A DNA stretch of 64,000 nucleotides, taken from contig CAYUHF010000006.1 in NCBI GenBank assembly GCA_964444505.1, positions 600 through 64,599 of the forward strand, given 5' to 3'. The stretch comes from an uncultured Methanosarcinales archaeon. GTDB lineage: Archaea > Nanobdellota > Nanobdellia > Woesearchaeales > JAGVZT01. Below are positions 1 through 15,875 of this stretch, piece after piece; position 1 is the stretch's first letter; every line of letters starts with the position of its first letter. The translations under genes were made by a program, and so were the position numbers. The notes under the pieces are model-generated. The model was given only the letters and a program-made list of their open reading frames with translations. It was not told the DNA's origin and ran no database searches.

Positions 1-484
1 CCCAGCAGACCATAGTGATAAGCGCATACACAACACCCTTGGCCATATTTTTTATATTAAGTTTCAAAAGATCATTGTATTTAAAAGATACCAGAATAGT
101 ACCGATAATTACCAAGAAAACAGCAACCCCCTGGATCTGACTCAAACTCTCATTTAAAAAAATAATACTCAAGACAACAGTAATCATAGAAGCACTTGAA
201 GCAATAGGACTGATAATAGAAAGATCACCAATCTCAAGCCCTTTGTAAAAAAAATTCATAGCAATAAACAACAGAACAGATGAAATAAATGCATAAACCA
301 GTACATTTACATTAAAAACAGGCATCTTGAAAAAAGGCATTAAAGCCAAAAACAATCCGATAAAAATAATCTGTGACCAGAGCAAAGGCCTGAAATACCC
401 GATTTTTTTTGAAACAACGCCACTTATATAATCAGAAAAACCCCATCCAAGCATTGCAATTATACCAAATAAAAGTTCATTCAT
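1..484 (-). CDS. EamA/DMT-family transporter, N-terminal part (gene runs off the left edge)
   Basis: Not in the ORF track (no stop inside the window). Manual reverse translation from ATG at 484 gives MNELLFGIIAMLGWGFSDYISGVVSKKIGYFRPLLWSQIIF..., open to position 1. Successive hydrophobic helices and a ...IIFLNESLSQIQGVAVFLVIIG... segment are typical of EamA repeats. Confidence 0.55.
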   Translation of the reverse strand, partial: MNELLFGIIAMLGWGFSDYISGVVSKKIGYFRPLLWSQIIFIGLFLALMPFFKMPVFNVNVLVYAFISSVLLFIAMNFFYKGLEIGDLSIISPIASSASMITVVLSIIFLNESLSQIQGVAVFLVIIGTILVSFKYNDLLKLNIKNMAKGVVYALITMVCW

Positions 485-9696: not shown

Positions 9697-10360
9697 GTTT
9701 TGAAGCCTCATTGCTTGACTGTATTATTGACTTTAGCTTTTCCTCAAATTTCTTGGCAGTCTCCATCAATGGTTCCGGGTCTATTTTAAGTCCCAGGTAA
9801 CTATCAAGTACTCTAACAACATTTGCTGCTGCTTTACTATCTGGGAGCTTGCTGTGTGTTTCAGCAAATACACATGTTACTGGGTATTCCTCAGCTTTCA
9901 ACAACAATGCAGATGTTACACCCATTATGATGCCTTCCTTCAGGCTTTCAACTCCTTCTATCTTGCTTTCTCTGTTTGAAAAGAAGAATGTTCTTGACTG
10001 ATCAGAATCAATATTTGAGCCGACTCCTTCTATACTTATGATCTCTTTTGCGTCGAGCTCATCTGCAAGATCCTTTATTGCATCAGCTATTTGCCATTCT
10101 GTACCAGAACTTGCAACAAGAGCATGAAGAATTACAAGATTATACTCTTTGTTGTAGAATATACCCATGGGCTCAACAAGCTGCTTTTCATGGATTGCAA
10201 CCATTGCCTGGGTATCTTCAACAAGTATCCTGCCGATCTTTTCTGTTTTCAAGTGATCCAAAAGGTATTCTGTAGTTATTGTTCCGATAAGTCCAAAACC
10301 TGGAAATCCTTCAACAATTACTGGATTTTTTGGTTTCTTTTTTAGTTCTAGTTTTGCCAT
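9662..10360 (-). CDS. PAC2-family proteasome assembly chaperone (PbaA/PbaB-like)
   Basis: N-terminus KKPKNPVIVEGFPGFGLIGTITTEYLLDHL is a PAC2 hallmark; 232 aa. Confidence 0.75.
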   Translation of the reverse strand: MAKLELKKKPKNPVIVEGFPGFGLIGTITTEYLLDHLKTEKIGRILVEDTQAMVAIHEKQLVEPMGIFYNKEYNLVILHALVASSGTEWQIADAIKDLADELDAKEIISIEGVGSNIDSDQSRTFFFSNRESKIEGVESLKEGIIMGVTSALLLKAEEYPVTCVFAETHSKLPDSKAAANVVRVLDSYLGLKIDPEPLMETAKKFEEKLKSIIQSSNEASKLKDSKQLSYVG

Positions 10361-10398: not shown

Positions 10399-10959
10399 CT
10401 ATTCAATGGCTGTTAAAAGCTCACCATTAGCAACTCTGTTCTCATTGCTCCCACGGATTGCGTACTCTACCTCAAGATTCCATCTCTTTAGTTCATCTGT
10501 ACTTGATAAACCTGCACAATTTAGCACAAAATTATGCCGTTGTCCGTTGTCAATATTTGCTTGTGATGCTGTTTCGCATCTTGGCAAATCATTTTCTGCA
10601 GGTACTGCCGATATACTGTTCACAGTTATATCATTGCCCATTCCATTTGTAATTAAAAGCGAAATTGTGTTATCTGCACTGGAGACAACATAGTCATCAC
10701 AGCTCAATCCGGTTGGCATTGTACATTTTGCCGGAAGTAGTTCTGATGGATTCATAACTCCGAAGTATGCAAATGAACCCAATAACATAATATAGAGTAT
10801 CGGTGTTAATAGTGAAATCACAATTGCTGCTATAGCAAATCCTCTTCCTTCATCTCCCTTTTTTGTTGTTGCTACTGCCACTATGCCCAGTATAAGCCCA
10901 AACACTGGAAGCAGGAATGCCAGTACAAATGCAATTATTGAAAGTGTTTTTTTACTCAT
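10399..10959 (-). CDS. DUF4190-like membrane protein with Cys-containing extracellular domain (paralog 1)
   Basis: Two N-terminal TM helices with an ...KKGDEGRGFAIAAIVISL motif, then CTMPTGLSCDD...ISLLITNGMGNDITV...C...C. Confidence 0.6.
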   Translation of the reverse strand: MSKKTLSIIAFVLAFLLPVFGLILGIVAVATTKKGDEGRGFAIAAIVISLLTPILYIMLLGSFAYFGVMNPSELLPAKCTMPTGLSCDDYVVSSADNTISLLITNGMGNDITVNSISAVPAENDLPRCETASQANIDNGQRHNFVLNCAGLSSTDELKRWNLEVEYAIRGSNENRVANGELLTAIE

Positions 10960-10963
10960 CTTA

Positions 10964-11548
10964 TCACCTGTCCATTTCAGCTAAAAGCTCTCCATGAAGT
11001 TGTTTTTTGTATGCTGGAGAGCTATCTTCATAGTAATATTCAAATTCAATATCCCAGCGTTTTTTTCCGCTTGAGTATTGCATATTATCACAATCAAGTA
11101 CAAACTCATGTTCATCAGAATTATTCAGTTCTGTTATGCCGCTGGTCTCACATGCGCCAGTTCCCTCTAATCTTGGAGTTGCATTAACTGAGGTTACAAT
11201 AACATCATGTCCTAATCGGTTCTCAAGAGCTAGGTAGATTCTGTCAGCACTGCTTGATATGGAATGACTATTACAACGGACCCCTGTAGGCATCATGCAC
11301 TTTTCCGTATGATGGTATGAACTTGACGCTCCAAAGTATGCCAGGCTACCAAATAATATAAGAAACATCACTCCGAGAATTATTCTAATGACACTTATAA
11401 TTATGGCTGCTATAGCAAGTCCTCTTCCCTCTGAATTGTCTTTTTTTATCTGACTTAGTGAAACTATGCCAAGAACAAGCGCTATCAAGGGAAATATAAA
11501 AGACAGTATTAATGAAACAATAGCAAGTGTGTTTGTTTTATCTTTCAT
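10964..11548 (-). CDS. DUF4190-like membrane protein with Cys-containing extracellular domain (paralog 2)
   Basis: Same architecture as the neighbour (KKDNSEGRGLAIAAIIISV; CMMPTGVRCNS...IYLALENRLGHDVIV). Tandem duplicate, 4-nt spacer. Confidence 0.6.
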   Translation of the reverse strand: MKDKTNTLAIVSLILSFIFPLIALVLGIVSLSQIKKDNSEGRGLAIAAIIISVIRIILGVMFLILFGSLAYFGASSSYHHTEKCMMPTGVRCNSHSISSSADRIYLALENRLGHDVIVTSVNATPRLEGTGACETSGITELNNSDEHEFVLDCDNMQYSSGKKRWDIEFEYYYEDSSPAYKKQLHGELLAEMDR

Positions 11549-11596: not shown

Positions 11597-11604
11597 CTTT
11601 TAAA
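11597..11604 (+). promoter_or_regulatory. TATA-box-like element upstream of tRNA-Gln
   Basis: TTTTAAAT lies 26-33 nt upstream of tRNA position +1. Confidence 0.4.
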
Positions 11605-11629
11605 TTAAAAACAGTTAGCTTTATTCCAG

Positions 11630-11710: not shown

Positions 11711-12013
11711 CTCAGGTATATCATTGAAAATACAACAAAGAAGGCCTATCTTTATTTCATGAAAAAGGCATGAAGTGCAGGGGAAGGGACTTTCAACGAC
11801 CAGCCCTATAACCAAGAAAATTATGGGCTTGCACCACACAACCTCTTGTCAAGCTTTGTAAAAGTCAGATTTGAACCCCTGAACCCACTAAGTGACTAGA
11901 CAACTATCACTTTTGGCAAGACTTGTTTCGCGTATTGTGAATTATTTTTTTATCAAATATTATGGATTATTAGGCAGGCAAAATTTTTAAACATCACTAA
12001 AATACTTTACTTT

Positions 12014-12220
12014 ATGCAGATAAAAAATCCGTATTTACAGAAAAAAAGAGAACTTCTGAAGAGACTTGACAAACTGAAATTTGAGTATAATTCTATTACT
12101 GACAGAAGGACAAGCAGGGCAAAGGAGATTAAGGACAAGATGGACAAGACACAGGAAAAATACAATGAAATTAACAGACAAAGTAAAGAATTTATTGAAA
12201 AAAAGTTAAAAAATATTTAG
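12014..12220 (+). CDS. small Lys/Glu-rich coiled-coil protein (68 aa)
   Basis: ORF only; heptad-like charged sequence. Confidence 0.4.
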   Translation: MQIKNPYLQKKRELLKRLDKLKFEYNSITDRRTSRAKEIKDKMDKTQEKYNEINRQSKEFIEKKLKNI

Positions 12221-12465
12221 ATCTGTTTTCCTTGTTTTATTGTGTATTGCGCGTCTATAGCATCTGGCTCTTTTCTTGCTAGATACCATATGTATGACAG
12301 GAAAACAATAACTCCTGTCAGGATTGCTGCTATGGCTGTCAGTGCTATAAAAACAACTGATCCCACAACTATAAACGGGGACAGTATAAGTATTACTACT
12401 GCTAGCACAACCAGAGATACAAGAAACACTCCCAGTCCTACAAAAAACCTGAAAATGTTTTTCAT
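12217..12465 (-). CDS. small membrane protein (82 aa, two TM helices)
   Basis: Hydrophobic helices FFVGLGVFLVSLVVLAVVILIL and VVFIALTAIAAILTGVIVFL. Start overlaps the stop of the AIM24-like gene. Confidence 0.5.
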   Translation of the reverse strand: MKNIFRFFVGLGVFLVSLVVLAVVILILSPFIVVGSVVFIALTAIAAILTGVIVFLSYIWYLARKEPDAIDAQYTIKQGKQI

Positions 12466-13139
12466 TTCTTTCCTACGTATAGTGATAATCTTTGTGCCAA
12501 ATTTGATAATGGCATACTCTGGAGATATACTTTTCCTGGTCCTTGAAGAGTGGCTAAGAATAGTCCTTCGCCCCCAAAAAGCATGTTCTTGAATCCTTTG
12601 ACTCTATTGATATCATAGTCAACTGTAGGCTCAAAGGCACCGATATATCCTGGATCTACCTTGAGTTTTTGTCCTTCCTTGAGTGTGTATTCATTTATTT
12701 CTCCTGAAAACTCAAGAAATGCTTTTCCCGGACCCTTGACTTTTTGCAAAATGAATCCTTCGCCTCCAAAGAACCCAGCACCTATTCTTTTTACAAACTC
12801 TGCTTCAATATCTACTTTTTCTTCTGCTGCCATAAATGCGTCTCTCTGGCAGATAATGTTTTCGTTTTCTTTTAAATCAAGCTCAACTATCTTTCCCGGA
12901 AATTCACTGCAGAATGTGACTAGACCTGTTCCTTCTGTACATGTGTAGTTTACCATGAAAAGTGATTCACCTGTGAATACTCGGCCAAGGCTTTTCCCAA
13001 GTCCGCCTCTCATCTCTGAGTTCATTTCAATGTTTGGACTCATCCAAGCAAGTCCTCCTGATTCTGTAAAAACTGTTTCTCCTTTTTTTAGTTCAACATC
13101 AAGAATTGGTAGTAATGTACCTCTTATTTCGTGTTTCAT
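12462..13139 (-). CDS. AIM24/TIGR00266-family protein (DUF124)
   Basis: ...GGLAWMSPNIEMNSEMRGG...GESLFMVNYT...GAGFFGGEGFILQKVKGPGKAFL...MLFGGEGLFLATLQGPGKVYLQS is the family pattern. GGTGAT Shine-Dalgarno upstream. Confidence 0.8.
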   Translation of the reverse strand: MKHEIRGTLLPILDVELKKGETVFTESGGLAWMSPNIEMNSEMRGGLGKSLGRVFTGESLFMVNYTCTEGTGLVTFCSEFPGKIVELDLKENENIICQRDAFMAAEEKVDIEAEFVKRIGAGFFGGEGFILQKVKGPGKAFLEFSGEINEYTLKEGQKLKVDPGYIGAFEPTVDYDINRVKGFKNMLFGGEGLFLATLQGPGKVYLQSMPLSNLAQRLSLYVGKK

Positions 13140-13292
13140 TAAATCACCCCATTTATGATTTGATTATTCAATTTATAAATGTTTTTAGTTTGATCATGAA
13201 AGGCCAGGATTATGAAGCGGGACAACCTTTTAATAAAGCTTGAACAAAACAGAGCCAACATCAGCTAAAGCTGAGTTGACTTAGAAAATAAG

Positions 13293-13376
13293 CGCCGACG
13301 CCCGGATTTGAACCGGGAGATCCTTGCGGAAACTGGCTCTCAAGGCCAGCGCAGTGCCAGATTGTGCCACGTCGGC
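13293..13376 (-). tRNA. tRNA-Ser (anticodon UGA), class II with long variable arm
   Basis: Minus strand: acceptor GCCGACG/CGTCGGC, D stem GCA/TGC, anticodon stem CTGGC/GCCAG with loop CTTGAGA, long variable arm, T-arm CCCGG-TTCAAAT-CCGGG, discriminator G. No encoded CCA. Confidence 0.9.
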
Positions 13377-13518
13377 ATTAACTATTGGTATGCCCTCCCG
13401 TGGCGACCAGAAATGTGTTTTTGCATTTCGGTGTATGCCACGTCGGCATTAATGTAGGTATGCCCTCTCGTGGCGACCATAAACTGTTTTTGGGTTTATG
13501 AGCATGCCACGTCGGCAT
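13365..13518. repeat. 2.5-copy ~70-bp tandem structured repeat that reiterates the tRNA-Ser 5' end
   Basis: tgccacgtcggc (reverse complement of tRNA nt 1-12) occurs at 13365-13376, 13436-13447 and 13505-13516. An inverted partial copy, ggtatgccctc[c/t]cgtggcgacca, occurs at 13387-13409 and 13457-13479. Inner hairpins lie at 13410-13429 and 13478-13500. Confidence 0.8.
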
Positions 13519-13540
13519 AGTTTATTGGAATAAAAAACAA

Positions 13541-13548
13541 TATTTAAA
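13541..13548 (-). promoter_or_regulatory. TATA-box-like element positioned for the distal repeat copy of the tRNA-Ser 5' end
   Basis: Minus-strand TTTAAATA lies 25-32 nt upstream of the G at 13516 (first base of the distal GCCGACG copy). No comparable box sits at that distance from the real tRNA 5' end (13376). Confidence 0.4.
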
Positions 13549-13563
13549 TGTTTAGTAAAACTT

Positions 13564-14259
13564 TCAATCTAACAGTTCATAAAAATCTGTTATCTTTGGT
13601 TCTTTCAAACCAGATTCCCAGTTTGTTGACCAAAAACCATATCTGCTGTGGTCTCCATACATGCCAACTGCTTCCATTCCATGGTCTGATATTACAAGAA
13701 GCTTTTCTCCTGTTTCTCTGCATTTTTTTGCTATTTCATCCATTTCTTTGTAAAGCATTTTCATTAGAGCTGTGTTTCCAAAGTTCAGATGGCCAATCAC
13801 ATCAACAACACTGAAATACCCCAAGACAAAGTCATGCTTTCCTATTGCATCCAGAAATTCCTTTTTTATTTTTCTGTGGTGATCAAAAGCATCTTTGTTA
13901 TACTCTTTTCTTATTTTTTCCTTGTCTTCAGTTTCAAAGTATTTTTTCAGTAGTGATCTTGACCTGTCGTGTGCATCTTTGTTGTAACTGTATCCAGGAA
14001 GGTCAATTACTATTGGATCCACAAATTTTTTGAAAAATGTTTTTTTCATTTCCCACTTCTTGTCCCACATCTCCTTTCCTTCCTGCAGTACATCATCTTC
14101 CTTGTTTTCTCCTGTGATAAATGAGCTCCAGAGCACCATTGTTCTTGGTTCTGAAAACTCTGATATGTCTGTTTTTCCATAGTGTTCTTGTTTTAAGTTA
14201 ATTGTATTGAATTTTTCAACCAGTTCTATTTCAAGCGCATCAATAGCCAGGATTATCAT
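13564..14259 (-). CDS. alkaline-phosphatase-superfamily protein (type I phosphodiesterase/nucleotide pyrophosphatase-like)
   Basis: MIILAIDAL... N-terminus, VVDVIGHLNFG and LLVISDHGM motifs typical of the AlkP core. Confidence 0.55.
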   Translation of the reverse strand: MIILAIDALEIELVEKFNTINLKQEHYGKTDISEFSEPRTMVLWSSFITGENKEDDVLQEGKEMWDKKWEMKKTFFKKFVDPIVIDLPGYSYNKDAHDRSRSLLKKYFETEDKEKIRKEYNKDAFDHHRKIKKEFLDAIGKHDFVLGYFSVVDVIGHLNFGNTALMKMLYKEMDEIAKKCRETGEKLLVISDHGMEAVGMYGDHSRYGFWSTNWESGLKEPKITDFYELLD

Positions 14260-14671
14260 TTTTAACCAACTCCTTTGTCTTAAAATTGTTTATCATTCTG
14301 TAAGTTAAAAAATATGTGTATTTGTCTGCACTATTGTGAAGTGCATCCATTGTAAGGTGCAGGAGCATTCCAAGCACCAATACGAAAGCATATTCATGTA
14401 AACCAGCAATAACCCCTAGTATCATTAATAAGGGCAAGAACTCAATACTGTGAAATAGTATTGGTAGTTTCCCCCAATTTCTATGAAAACCTGAAAAAAA
14501 CTCTTTGGTGTATGTGATTCTTTTCTTGTAAATCCAAAAGTCAATAACGTGGTCTAAATCTATTAGAAATCCTCCTGCAAAAAACAGGAAAAACATTAAC
14601 CCTGAACCTGTAAAGAAGTATATGATTATCCCGCCAAGTACTGAAGAAACAAGATGATACTCAGGGTCCAT
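14240..14671 (-). CDS. membrane-bound metal-dependent hydrolase, YdjM/DUF457-like
   Basis: Four or five TM helices with [12 protein letters not shown] and [11 protein letters not shown] His/Asp motifs. Confidence 0.6.
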
Positions 14672-15875
14672 GGATTATTCCTCCTGCTTTGATATTTCCT
14701 TTAATTTCCAGCACAAATCTTCCCATCTCGGGTACCTTGCTGAAGTCCTCTGTTACAATTTTTTTATCTGTTTCTATTATAACTTTGGCGGCTTCATTTG
14801 TTTTTATAACATCACCCTTGGTTAACTCAAGTGATGATGAATCAATTTTCTCTAGTATGTCTGTTATTTCTGCTGTTACTTCCTGGGTTGCCAGCTTAAG
14901 TGTTACAGGAGTATTTGTATTTAGTTCGTGAATCATGCAGAAAACGGTCGCTTTTATCTTATCTGATACTGTAGGGAGGTCTTTTAGTCCACAGATCACA
15001 TTCCCTCTTTCAACAAAAACTGGGTCATTTAATGTAATGCCTATGCTCTCTCCTGTTTCTGCCTTTTCAGTATCTTCATGAAATTTTTCAATGCTTTTTA
15101 TCTCTGATTTCTTGCCATCTGGAAGTATGACTACTGGTTGTGATTGTTCTATTTTTCCTGATTCAACTCTTCCCACTGCTATTCTTTTATCCTTAATCTT
15201 GTAAACATCCTGTAATGGTAATCTCAAAGCACCTGTTTTGTACTCTGGCTCAAATGAGTCAAGCGATTCAATAAGGGATTCACCGTTATACCAGGGCATA
15301 TTGTCTGAGCTTTCTATCACATTATCTCCAATTTTTGCACTTGCTGGTATTATCAATCCTGGTTTTATGCTTATTTTTTTGAGAAAATCTCTTACTTGTT
15401 TCTCTACTTCTTTGAATCTTTCTTTGCTGTAATCAACAAGATCCATCTTGTTAACAACAACTATTACCTGTTTTAATCCCAACATGCTCAGAAGATATGC
15501 ATGTCTTCTCGTCTGCTCCTCTACTCCTTCTTTTGCACTAACGATTAATACTGCTGCTTCTGCCTGAGAAGCTCCGGTTATCATGTTACGTGTGAACTCA
15601 ACATGTCCTGGTGCATCAATTATCACATAAGTTCTTCTGTCTGTTTTAAACCATATCTGTGCTGTATCAATTGTAATTCCCTGTTCTCTTTCCTCTCTGA
15701 GATGATCAAGCAGGAATCCGTATTCCATTTCTCTTCCAAGTGCTTCACAAATTTCTTTCACTTCATTGAGTTTTTCTTCCGATATACTTTTTGTATCGTG
15801 AAGAAGCCTTCCAATAAGTGTTGATTTTCCGTGATCAATGTGTCCAACTAAAACTATGTTCATTGTTTTCATCAT
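14661..15875 (-). CDS. cysN: sulfate adenylyltransferase subunit 1 (GTPase CysN), no fused APS-kinase domain
   Basis: [10 protein letters not shown] (G1), DAPGH (G3), NKMD (G4), EREQGITID, and the beta-barrel domain pattern [10 protein letters not shown]...GRVESG. Adjacent to cysD. Only 404 aa. Confidence 0.8.

Follow-up and report, generated by a model that had tools for sequence, protein, structure and literature searches.

The tRNA-Ser(UGA) gene on contig CAYUHF010000006.1 of an uncultured Methanosarcinales archaeon (GenBank assembly GCA_964444505.1; GTDB lineage Woesearchaeales, JAGVZT01) is preceded by two tandem units of ~70 bp, each of which carries a perfect copy of the 5' end of the tRNA together with an antisense copy of the same end. 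The gene lies in a stretch of 64,000 nt (positions 600 to 64,599 of the contig, forward strand), referred to here as the window, and all coordinates below are those of the window. The preferred explanation, to which about an even chance is given, is that the units form a transcribed, structured leader of ~142 nt, composed of two tandem mimics of the tRNA end that arose by end-regenerating insertion or duplication. The tRNA would be freed by 5' processing at 13376/13377, and the hairpins of the leader would keep the decoy ends away.

Tandem units upstream of tRNA-Ser(UGA)

A complete, colinear tRNA-Ser(UGA) gene was found on the minus strand at 13292-13376 by ARAGORN and at 13293-13376 by Rfam (53.1 bits). 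The first 12 nt of this tRNA (GCCGACGTGGCA) occur exactly three times in the 64 kb, all on the minus strand, at 13365-13376, 13436-13447 and 13505-13516, with 0.02 occurrences expected by chance. Three 12-nt direct repeats had been reported at these positions in an earlier interpretation made from the letters alone (hereafter the sequence-only reading). The identity among the copies spans 14 nt (ATGCCGACGTGGCA) when the two preceding bases are added. Tandem Repeats Finder places the array at 13365-13518 with a period of 69, 2.2 copies and 84% matches; the periods between copies are 69-71 bp, and ~57 bp of gene-free sequence lies between one copy and the next. The parts of the locus, in the order of transcription, are as follows.

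13541..13548, minus strand: TATA-like box TTTAAATA, ending 24 nt before the distal 5'-end copy
13457..13518, minus strand: hairpin of unit 1 (distal), with AT and the 5'-end copy at 13505-13516, the apical stem CATAAAC/GTTTATG at 13494-13500/13478-13484 and the antisense segment GGTCGCCACGAGAGGGCATACC at 13457-13478
13450..13456, minus strand: spacer TACATTA before the middle copy, plus the antisense segment's end; similar to the native leader that precedes the distal copy
13387..13449, minus strand: hairpin of unit 2 (proximal), with AT and the 5'-end copy at 13436-13447, the apical stem GAAATG/CATTTC at 13424-13429/13410-13415 and the antisense segment GGTCGCCACGGGAGGGCATACC at 13387-13408
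13377..13386, minus strand: last spacer AATAGTTAAT, directly 5' of the real tRNA start, without a promoter-like box
13293..13376, minus strand: uninterrupted tRNA-Ser(UGA) body of 84 nt (ARAGORN; Rfam tRNA, 53.1 bits), whose first 12 nt (13365-13376) are the third, proximal repeat copy
13282..13292, minus strand: T-rich trailer CTTATTTTCT, a likely terminator, read from the sequence

The inverted element between the copies, GGTCGCCACG[G/A]GAGGGCATACC, occupies 13387-13408 and 13457-13478 and is complementary to 5'-end positions -2..3 (AUGCC/GGCAU) and 6-11 (CGUGGC/GCCACG). The sequence-only reading had recognized both the presence and the pairing of these inverted partial copies, although it had set their ends one base too far, the correct ends being 13408 and 13478. 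The apical stem is GAAAUG/CAUUUC in the proximal unit versus CAUAAAC/GUUUAUG in the distal unit, with several pairs changed on both sides, while the loop CAAAAACA is common to both; the inner hairpin with compensatory stem changes and a retained loop described earlier is thus present. When folded alone, unit 1 reaches -23.4 kcal/mol (z -3.9) and unit 2 -24.9 kcal/mol (z -4.3). The leader-like spacers ATTCCAATAAACTAT and ATACCAATAGTTAAT agree at ~10/16 positions, and their counterparts in a related locus (L086, described below) at ~14/16. No duplicate of the tRNA 3' end or of a 3' part was found downstream or elsewhere in the 64-kb window.

Because the two units differ by ~16%, misassembly of identical copies does not account for the array; a further argument is that the architecture recurs in three independent contigs of other samples, described below. 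In the Logan assembly of SRR15425350, the contigs that belong to this organism are interrupted on either side of the repeat, one (L001) corresponding to window 11966-13263 and the other (L114) to window 13600-15270. The repeat region thus rests on one assembly, since the Logan contigs end at 13263 and 13600. The breaks around 13264-13599 may be due to low coverage, to sequence common to other tRNA-Ser genes or to strain heterogeneity in unit number.

Several known types of element were considered for the units and set aside. No Rfam family, including the C/D and H/ACA small RNAs, matches the units at E<=1, and neither RUGAUGA/CUGA boxes nor an ACA tail occur in the window units. A C/D box reading was rejected, as UGAUGA and CUGA are present in the L086 spacers and not in the window units. 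A kink-turn reading of the GA/GGAG loop has the wrong geometry, and the loop is not conserved. A T-box-like UGGN reading was speculative and was dropped. A clustered regularly interspaced short palindromic repeat (CRISPR) array was rejected because its 'spacers' would be 84% identical to each other.

Position of the promoter

The TATA-like box at 13548-13541 is the sole TATA-like 8-mer on the minus strand within 13377-13600, and the plus strand has no such 8-mer between 13200 and 13600. At tRNA-Gln, the other tRNA gene of the window, the TATA box (TTTTAAAT, 11598-11605) likewise ends 24 nt before the +1 (11630). The sequence-only reading had reported a lone box upstream of the distal copy, with the spacing seen at tRNA-Gln, and this description holds. 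The G+C content of the window is 37% and the TATA promoters are of the archaeal type.

Related loci came from a comparison set chosen for having the 20-nt 3' end of the window tRNA-Ser, with 109 metagenomic and 2 viral-collection members. In the 68 ordinary, unit-less tRNA-Ser loci with unique upstream regions, TATA-like boxes cluster 23-26 nt from +1. None of the loci carrying upstream copies or nested genes has a TATA-like box at <=70 nt from the proximal +1. Because the promoter of the window locus stands at the canonical distance from the distal copy, we infer that the units lie within the tRNA-Ser transcription unit. The same spacing agrees with the structured leader of ~140 nt that had been predicted from the letters alone.

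Homologous units in other contigs

Three unrelated metagenome contigs from other samples carry units of the same architecture directly upstream of tRNA-Ser. Two units with a period of 68 are present in L086 and one with a period of 70 in L026; in L064, where the tRNA-Ser is intron-rich, the two units measure 67 and 69 nt. Relatives had been named in the sequence-only reading as a place to look for the 70-bp unit; no exact copy of the unit turned up in the searches, and these units are what was recovered. Common to the units are a tRNA-like copy that runs to position 12, a derived UAC after it (positions 13-15; CAA or UAA in the tRNAs), an apical hairpin, the motif CUGGU(C)GC, CTGGTCGC, an antisense segment and a leader-like spacer, which is clearest in L086. 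With unit G+C ranging from 32 to 68%, the size of ~67-71 bp and the breakpoint after position 12, followed by UAC, are the same across the four genomes.

Folded alone, each of the seven units (two each in the window, L086 and L064, and one in L026) gives a single extended hairpin, and z versus shuffles ranges from -1.8 to -4.3. The RNAalifold consensus of these seven units consists of two helices with 11 pairs, three of which show compensatory double changes. At position 9, for example, L086 has C:G where the window, L064 and L026 have G:C, in line with the tRNA. In the consensus alignment, 90.7% of cells are paired, compared with 19-62% when the partners are slid. The covariation score is 0.303 versus a shuffle mean of 0.187, and was reached by none of 500 shuffles. 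Selection on structure, argued earlier from the two window units, is thus favoured by compensatory changes both within the window and across the homologous units of the three contigs.

The apical region of window unit 2 is 83% identical to that of L086 unit 2 and 75% identical to that of window unit 1. Unit 2 is thus closer to the proximal unit of L086 than to its own neighbour, which hints that the two-unit array predates the split of these lineages, although the difference is slight and the sequences compared are short. The upstream copies of L086, GCUAACG and GCUCACG, mismatch the acceptor 3' strand CGUCGGC, to which the proximal copy is a perfect match, and the changed bases of the upstream copies still pair with their own antisense UUGG. 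What L086 has conserved is the hairpin, not the capacity to act as an exon.

A covariance model built from the seven units was run against the window and the related loci (about 780-790 kb) and recovered only its seven training units, with 64.2 bits for unit 1 and 73.7 bits for unit 2 of the window. The unit family thus appears to be rare and, so far, tied to tRNA-Ser genes. Exact and near-exact searches for the antisense element found nothing in viral contigs or metagenome contigs. One match in a species-representative genome (L002, Sulfuricurvum) was dismissed as chance.

Other rearrangements of related tRNA-Ser genes

Mirror-image units occur at the 3' ends of tRNA-Ser genes, where one to three further copies of the tRNA's last 12-25 nt follow downstream, with 70-150 nt between copies. 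Such units were found in L026 (71 nt), L021, L022 (x2), L007, L086 and L094 (3 x 102 bp, nearly identical). The 71-nt unit of L026 forms one long hairpin made up of an antisense segment, an apical hairpin and the 3'-end copy (z -4.7). A T-rich terminator follows only the outermost 3' copy in L026, L021 and L007.

One apical module, GAAAT..ATTTCTGG (RNA GAAAU..AUUUCUGG), that is, GAAAT-loop-ATTTC and then TGG, is found at both ends of these genes. It is present in window unit 2 (13410-13429), in three L086 elements (one of them ~46-110 nt downstream of the tRNA), in the 3' units of L094 and L056 and in a T-loop insert of L004. There are 21 matches to the module in ~0.79 Mb, nine of which lie within 250 nt of a tRNA-Ser gene.

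In five loci (L004, L011/L042, L051, L064 and L071), one tRNA-Ser gene is nested within another, the break in the outer gene falling between its variable arm and its T arm. The inner gene is a complete tRNA-Ser with its own leader and trailer, flanked by perfect inverted repeats of 12-13 bp, such as ATGAAAATTCCCC...GGGGAATTTTCAT in L051. The T arm and acceptor of the outer gene lie downstream of the inner gene, sometimes with an additional T-loop insert. No clean bulge-helix-bulge (BHB) motif was found by hand at the junctions of the nested genes.

Non-canonical introns are seen in the D stem, the D loop or the region of positions 26-29 of DPANN tRNA-Ser genes (L031, L034, L084, L071, L008 and L079). 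The BHB motifs of L031, L034, L084 and L071 have a palindromic or near-palindromic central helix (GCGC/GCGU, GCAC/GUGC), so that their junctions resemble direct repeats; no BHB was seen by eye in L008 and L079. ARAGORN mis-assigns several of the intron-bearing tRNA-Ser genes (as Ala, Gly, Thr, Leu or Stop).

Heavy rearrangement is a feature of the tRNA-Ser genes in these organisms. Where the pattern is clearest, it is the outermost copies that retain promoters and terminators, which argues for DNA-level events inside the gene that regenerate its ends. By analogy, this points to a logic shared with the duplication of att sites by integrative elements.

A proposed structured leader and its folding

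Under the preferred reading, region 13377-13518 would consist of two tandem modules of ~70 nt lodged inside the tRNA-Ser(UGA) transcription unit. Each module would comprise a copy of the native leader joined to the first 12 tRNA positions, a short hairpin at the apex, an antisense segment pairing with -2..3 and 6-11, and a spacer, and would rebuild the 5' end downstream of itself. The repeat structure and the homologous units agree with the earlier proposal of two ~70-bp insertions or duplications that rebuilt the 5' end. The promoter would remain 24 nt from the distal 'tRNA 5' end', and the intact gene would start 140 nt further on. Transcription would then yield a pre-tRNA with a ~142-nt leader of two long hairpins, in which each pseudo-5' end is locked by its own antisense segment as the module is transcribed. 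The proximal copy alone would be free to pair with the acceptor 3' strand, and the leader would be removed at 13376/13377 by a 5'-processing activity, either RNase P or an equivalent. Kinetic trapping of this kind would provide a rationale for an antisense segment that tracks the tRNA sequence. At the DNA level, the modules would represent a family of presumably recombinational, end-regenerating partial duplications or insertions at the 5' ends, mirrored at the 3' ends, of tRNA-Ser in several DPANN-type archaea.

In the folding of growing prefixes of the precursor, the local hairpins of the units are the minimum free energy (MFE) structure until the third copy has been made. The MFE structure of the full precursor (227 nt) has -87.4 kcal/mol; here the acceptor and D stems are built with the distal copy, the proximal copy is bound by the distal antisense segment, and unit 2 lies enclosed within. 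When the proximal copy is the acceptor partner, the fold is 4.2 kcal/mol weaker and accounts for <1% of the ensemble. After its copy, the distal unit alone reads GCAUGCU, where five of the six other units have GCAUAC. This single change lets UGCU (13502-13505) pair with GGCA of the tRNA D loop (13355-13358), and the MFE structure therefore prefers the distal copy as the 5' strand.

Several points weigh against a structured leader. At equilibrium, the distal copy is preferred as the acceptor partner (-87.4 vs -83.2 kcal/mol, 98.6% of the ensemble), and alternative pairings compete as soon as the third copy exists. Correct maturation would thus need kinetic, co-transcriptional trapping of two decoy ends. 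The energetics are where the leader reading is weakest, and they give the minority reading, use of the distal copy, its strongest backing. Moreover, both window tRNAs (Ser and Gln) have a Nanoarchaeum-like fixed promoter spacing, which is compatible with leaderless tRNAs. As the three window copies are identical, sequence alone cannot tell which of them is the real 5' end. In five of the seven units the antisense strand is as stable or more stable, and counts of G-U pairs do not show the folding strand, so a palindrome at the DNA level is a further possibility. The sample is also small: it comprises seven units in four loci, all matches to the covariance model are its training sequences, and homologues were sought only among tRNA-Ser genes sharing one 20-nt 3' end.

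Alternative explanations

The equilibrium fold bears most directly on the possibility that the tRNA really starts, nearly leaderless, at the distal copy and that the 140 nt between distal position 12 and gene position 13 are removed as one or two D-arm 'introns', by a broad-specificity DPANN splicing endonuclease or by another route. The promoter at the canonical 24 nt from the distal copy, as in tRNA-Gln, and the 14-nt identity across all three copies would both fit such removal, as would an MFE structure that uses the distal copy for the acceptor and D stem and leaves the units as a rod in the D loop. The outer tRNA-Ser of L011 has a D-loop insert of similar architecture in which only the distal copy matches the 3' acceptor strand, and sister loci contain many non-canonical introns. 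However, a BHB scanner (whose general scan was very noisy) and hand reading, applied to splice pairs 69, 71 or 140 nt apart, found no hBHBh' or relaxed HBh' motif that would give a valid tRNA. The geometry applied was a 4-bp helix formed of the last exon and last intron bases, with the splice site two bases into a 3-nt bulge. As the junctions are direct repeats, this central helix would have to be palindromic, and the sole palindromic candidate, ACGU (positions 5-8), lacks flanking helices and bulges. Splicing at the only BHB-like pairs (5' site after C6, 3' site after C13) would cost the tRNA 7 nt. The genuine introns of sister loci, on the other hand, show clear BHBs: CUUG/CAAG in L016 (canonical), GCGC AA| ... 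GCGU AA| in L031, L034 and L084, and GCAC AA| ... GUGC AA| in the D loop of L071. In addition, the proximal copy and the body already form a complete 53-bit tRNA that needs no excision, and the upstream copies of L086 have drifted at acceptor positions. An intervening sequence is therefore improbable, and the non-canonical intron or split-tRNA arrangement offered by the sequence-only reading is not supported. A split or permuted tRNA was rejected, the gene being contiguous and colinear with no 3'-part duplicates in the window.

The units may instead be inert scars, that is, nested attL/attR-type repeats left by successive integrations of plasmids or viruses that target tRNA-Ser, with interiors deleted to ~57 bp and hairpins without a role. 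Repeats of the tRNA 5' terminus upstream of a reconstituted gene are a known signature of pNOB8-type integration (PMC3293823). The 14-29-bp repeats at the 5' and 3' ends in sister loci resemble att cores, and in several 3' cases the terminator stands only on the outermost copy. Scars of this kind are nevertheless a somewhat unlikely explanation, as random decay would not give a constant size of ~67-71 bp and a common breakpoint in four genomes, and no integrase or other mobile genetic element gene lies beside the window locus, L022, L111, L094, L064 or L026. A miniature inverted-repeat transposable element (MITE) specific for tRNA-Ser and inserted twice with a 14-bp target-site duplication would account for the defined size, the imperfect inverted repeat, the flanking direct repeats and the occurrence in different genomes. 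Such an element is very improbable: one of its 'terminal inverted repeats' would be the tRNA 5' end itself, changing with the host tRNA; the length of the duplication varies from 14 to ~32 bp between loci; and no other copy was found in the 64-kb window, nor away from tRNA-Ser genes in the ~790 kb of related loci. As originally put forward, neither att scars nor a MITE explains the constant size, the antisense segment and the compensatory changes and covariation, although either may be the origin of the units at the DNA level. Functional minihelix RNAs, in which the units would be cut from the precursor as acceptor-stem-like hairpins and would regulate, or serve as a decoy for, an enzyme or mobile element recognizing the end of tRNA-Ser, are also improbable. 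In their favour, the hairpin base looks like an acceptor stem with 4-6 bp added, L064 and L026 have antisense 3' parts similar to CGUCGGC of the acceptor 3' strand, and the architecture is kept in four contigs and mirrored at 3' ends. Against this, there is no conserved loop or tail motif and no CCA, the window units lack C/D or H/ACA boxes and an Rfam match, and the units are dispensable, given that closely similar tRNA-Ser genes lack them. The variant of the sequence-only reading, in which minihelices ending in GACCA are read on the plus strand, is not supported, as the plus strand lacks a promoter-like box and ACCA is not conserved in L064; GACCA is more simply the complement of the D-loop-like CUGGU. 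A wider proposal, that the modules are selected, co-transcribed mimics of tRNA-Ser 5' and 3' ends kept in DPANN archaea for a function, is judged unlikely. Under it, they may control the folding or maturation of pre-tRNA through competing acceptor partners, decoy integrases or nucleases, or serve as alternative 5' exons removed by a non-BHB route.

Genomic neighbourhood

The neighbours of the tRNA-Ser locus encode a phosphodiesterase-like protein, AIM24, YdjM and a CysN-like GTPase. Neither at the window locus nor near the five sister loci named above (L022, L111, L094, L064 and L026) was an integrase or another mobile-element gene found. The flanking proteins have no close relatives, with best matches of 75% (AIM24) and 60% (CysN-like GTPase), and the best named protein relatives (60-75% identity) come from Woesearchaeota, Nanoarchaeota and other DPANN bins. 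An orthologous tRNA-Ser locus was not found, no tRNA adjoins AIM24 in five contigs of AIM24 relatives, and no record was found for the upstream protein.

The gene of the AIM24/TIGR00266 family (window 12217-13139, minus strand) is followed by a small open reading frame (ORF) of 82-84 aa without a Pfam match. This pair is kept in all five relatives (L115-L119), and the upstream neighbour varies. Two adjacent paralogous genes for DUF4190 membrane proteins lie at window 10399-10959 and 10964-11548 (minus strand). The Rfam scan of the 64-kb window returned two tRNAs only and no RNase P RNA. A sub-threshold match to the eukaryotic SNORA11 at 10209-10330 (plus strand, 21.6 bits, E 0.45), within or antisense to an ORF, is almost certainly due to chance.

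Comparison with known systems and significance

The origin of interrupted, split and fragmented archaeal tRNA genes is a long-standing question, for which the current model is the integration of mobile elements at tRNA termini. The window locus is a real, undescribed variant of the known disruption of tRNA genes and duplication of their fragments, and not a new category.

In Caldiarchaeum, 5'-terminal tRNA fragments generated by archaeal integrative elements lie upstream of the reconstituted gene (tRNA-Thr-F/tRNA-Thr-II; PMC3293823). Like integration repeats of the pNOB8 and SSV type, the window locus has partial copies of a tRNA terminus upstream of a reconstituted complete gene, and it is the outer copy that keeps the original flank; in both, copies may be tandem or nested. 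The direct repeats identical to the tRNA terminus that are expected of att sites are present (14 nt, three times), and no element or integrase remnant lies between or beside them. Unlike such integration repeats, the units have a gene-free interior of ~57 bp, a constant size and architecture across genomes, a covarying antisense copy and no integrase nearby. With the D-arm BHB introns of Thermoproteales and DPANN/ARMAN archaea, the locus shares additional structured sequence at about position 12/13 of a gene predicted to be transcribed, and its sister loci are rich in introns. It differs from them in that the window units have no BHB, the junctions repeat the exon and the downstream part is a complete tRNA for which splicing is not needed.

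The single endonucleolytic cut predicted at the proximal +1 is comparable to the removal by RNase P of long leaders and polycistronic spacers. Ordinary leaders, however, contain no copies of tRNA ends, whereas this one would include two decoys that perfectly match the cleavage-site context as well as the acceptor 5' strand, both neutralized by antisense pairing. Partial, non-functional pieces beside an intact gene also recall the prokaryotic tRNA gene fragments and pseudo-tRNAs that have been catalogued (bioRxiv 10.1101/2022.07.05.498093). In contrast to those fragments, the window pieces are embedded in conserved hairpin modules that appear to lie inside a transcription unit.

Small hairpin modules of constant size, regenerating the end of the gene with an antisense copy at either end of tRNA-Ser and apparently lying within the unit of transcription, thus represent an unreported intermediate form. 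Loci of this kind will mislead tRNA annotation and the inference of promoters and leaders in DPANN genomes. If the modules are debris, they would be a record of how tRNA genes in reduced genomes are reshaped by end-regenerating recombination. Hairpins under selection would instead constitute a new kind of cis element governing the folding of pre-tRNA, and the finding would become considerably more interesting should the hairpins prove to be selected or processed.

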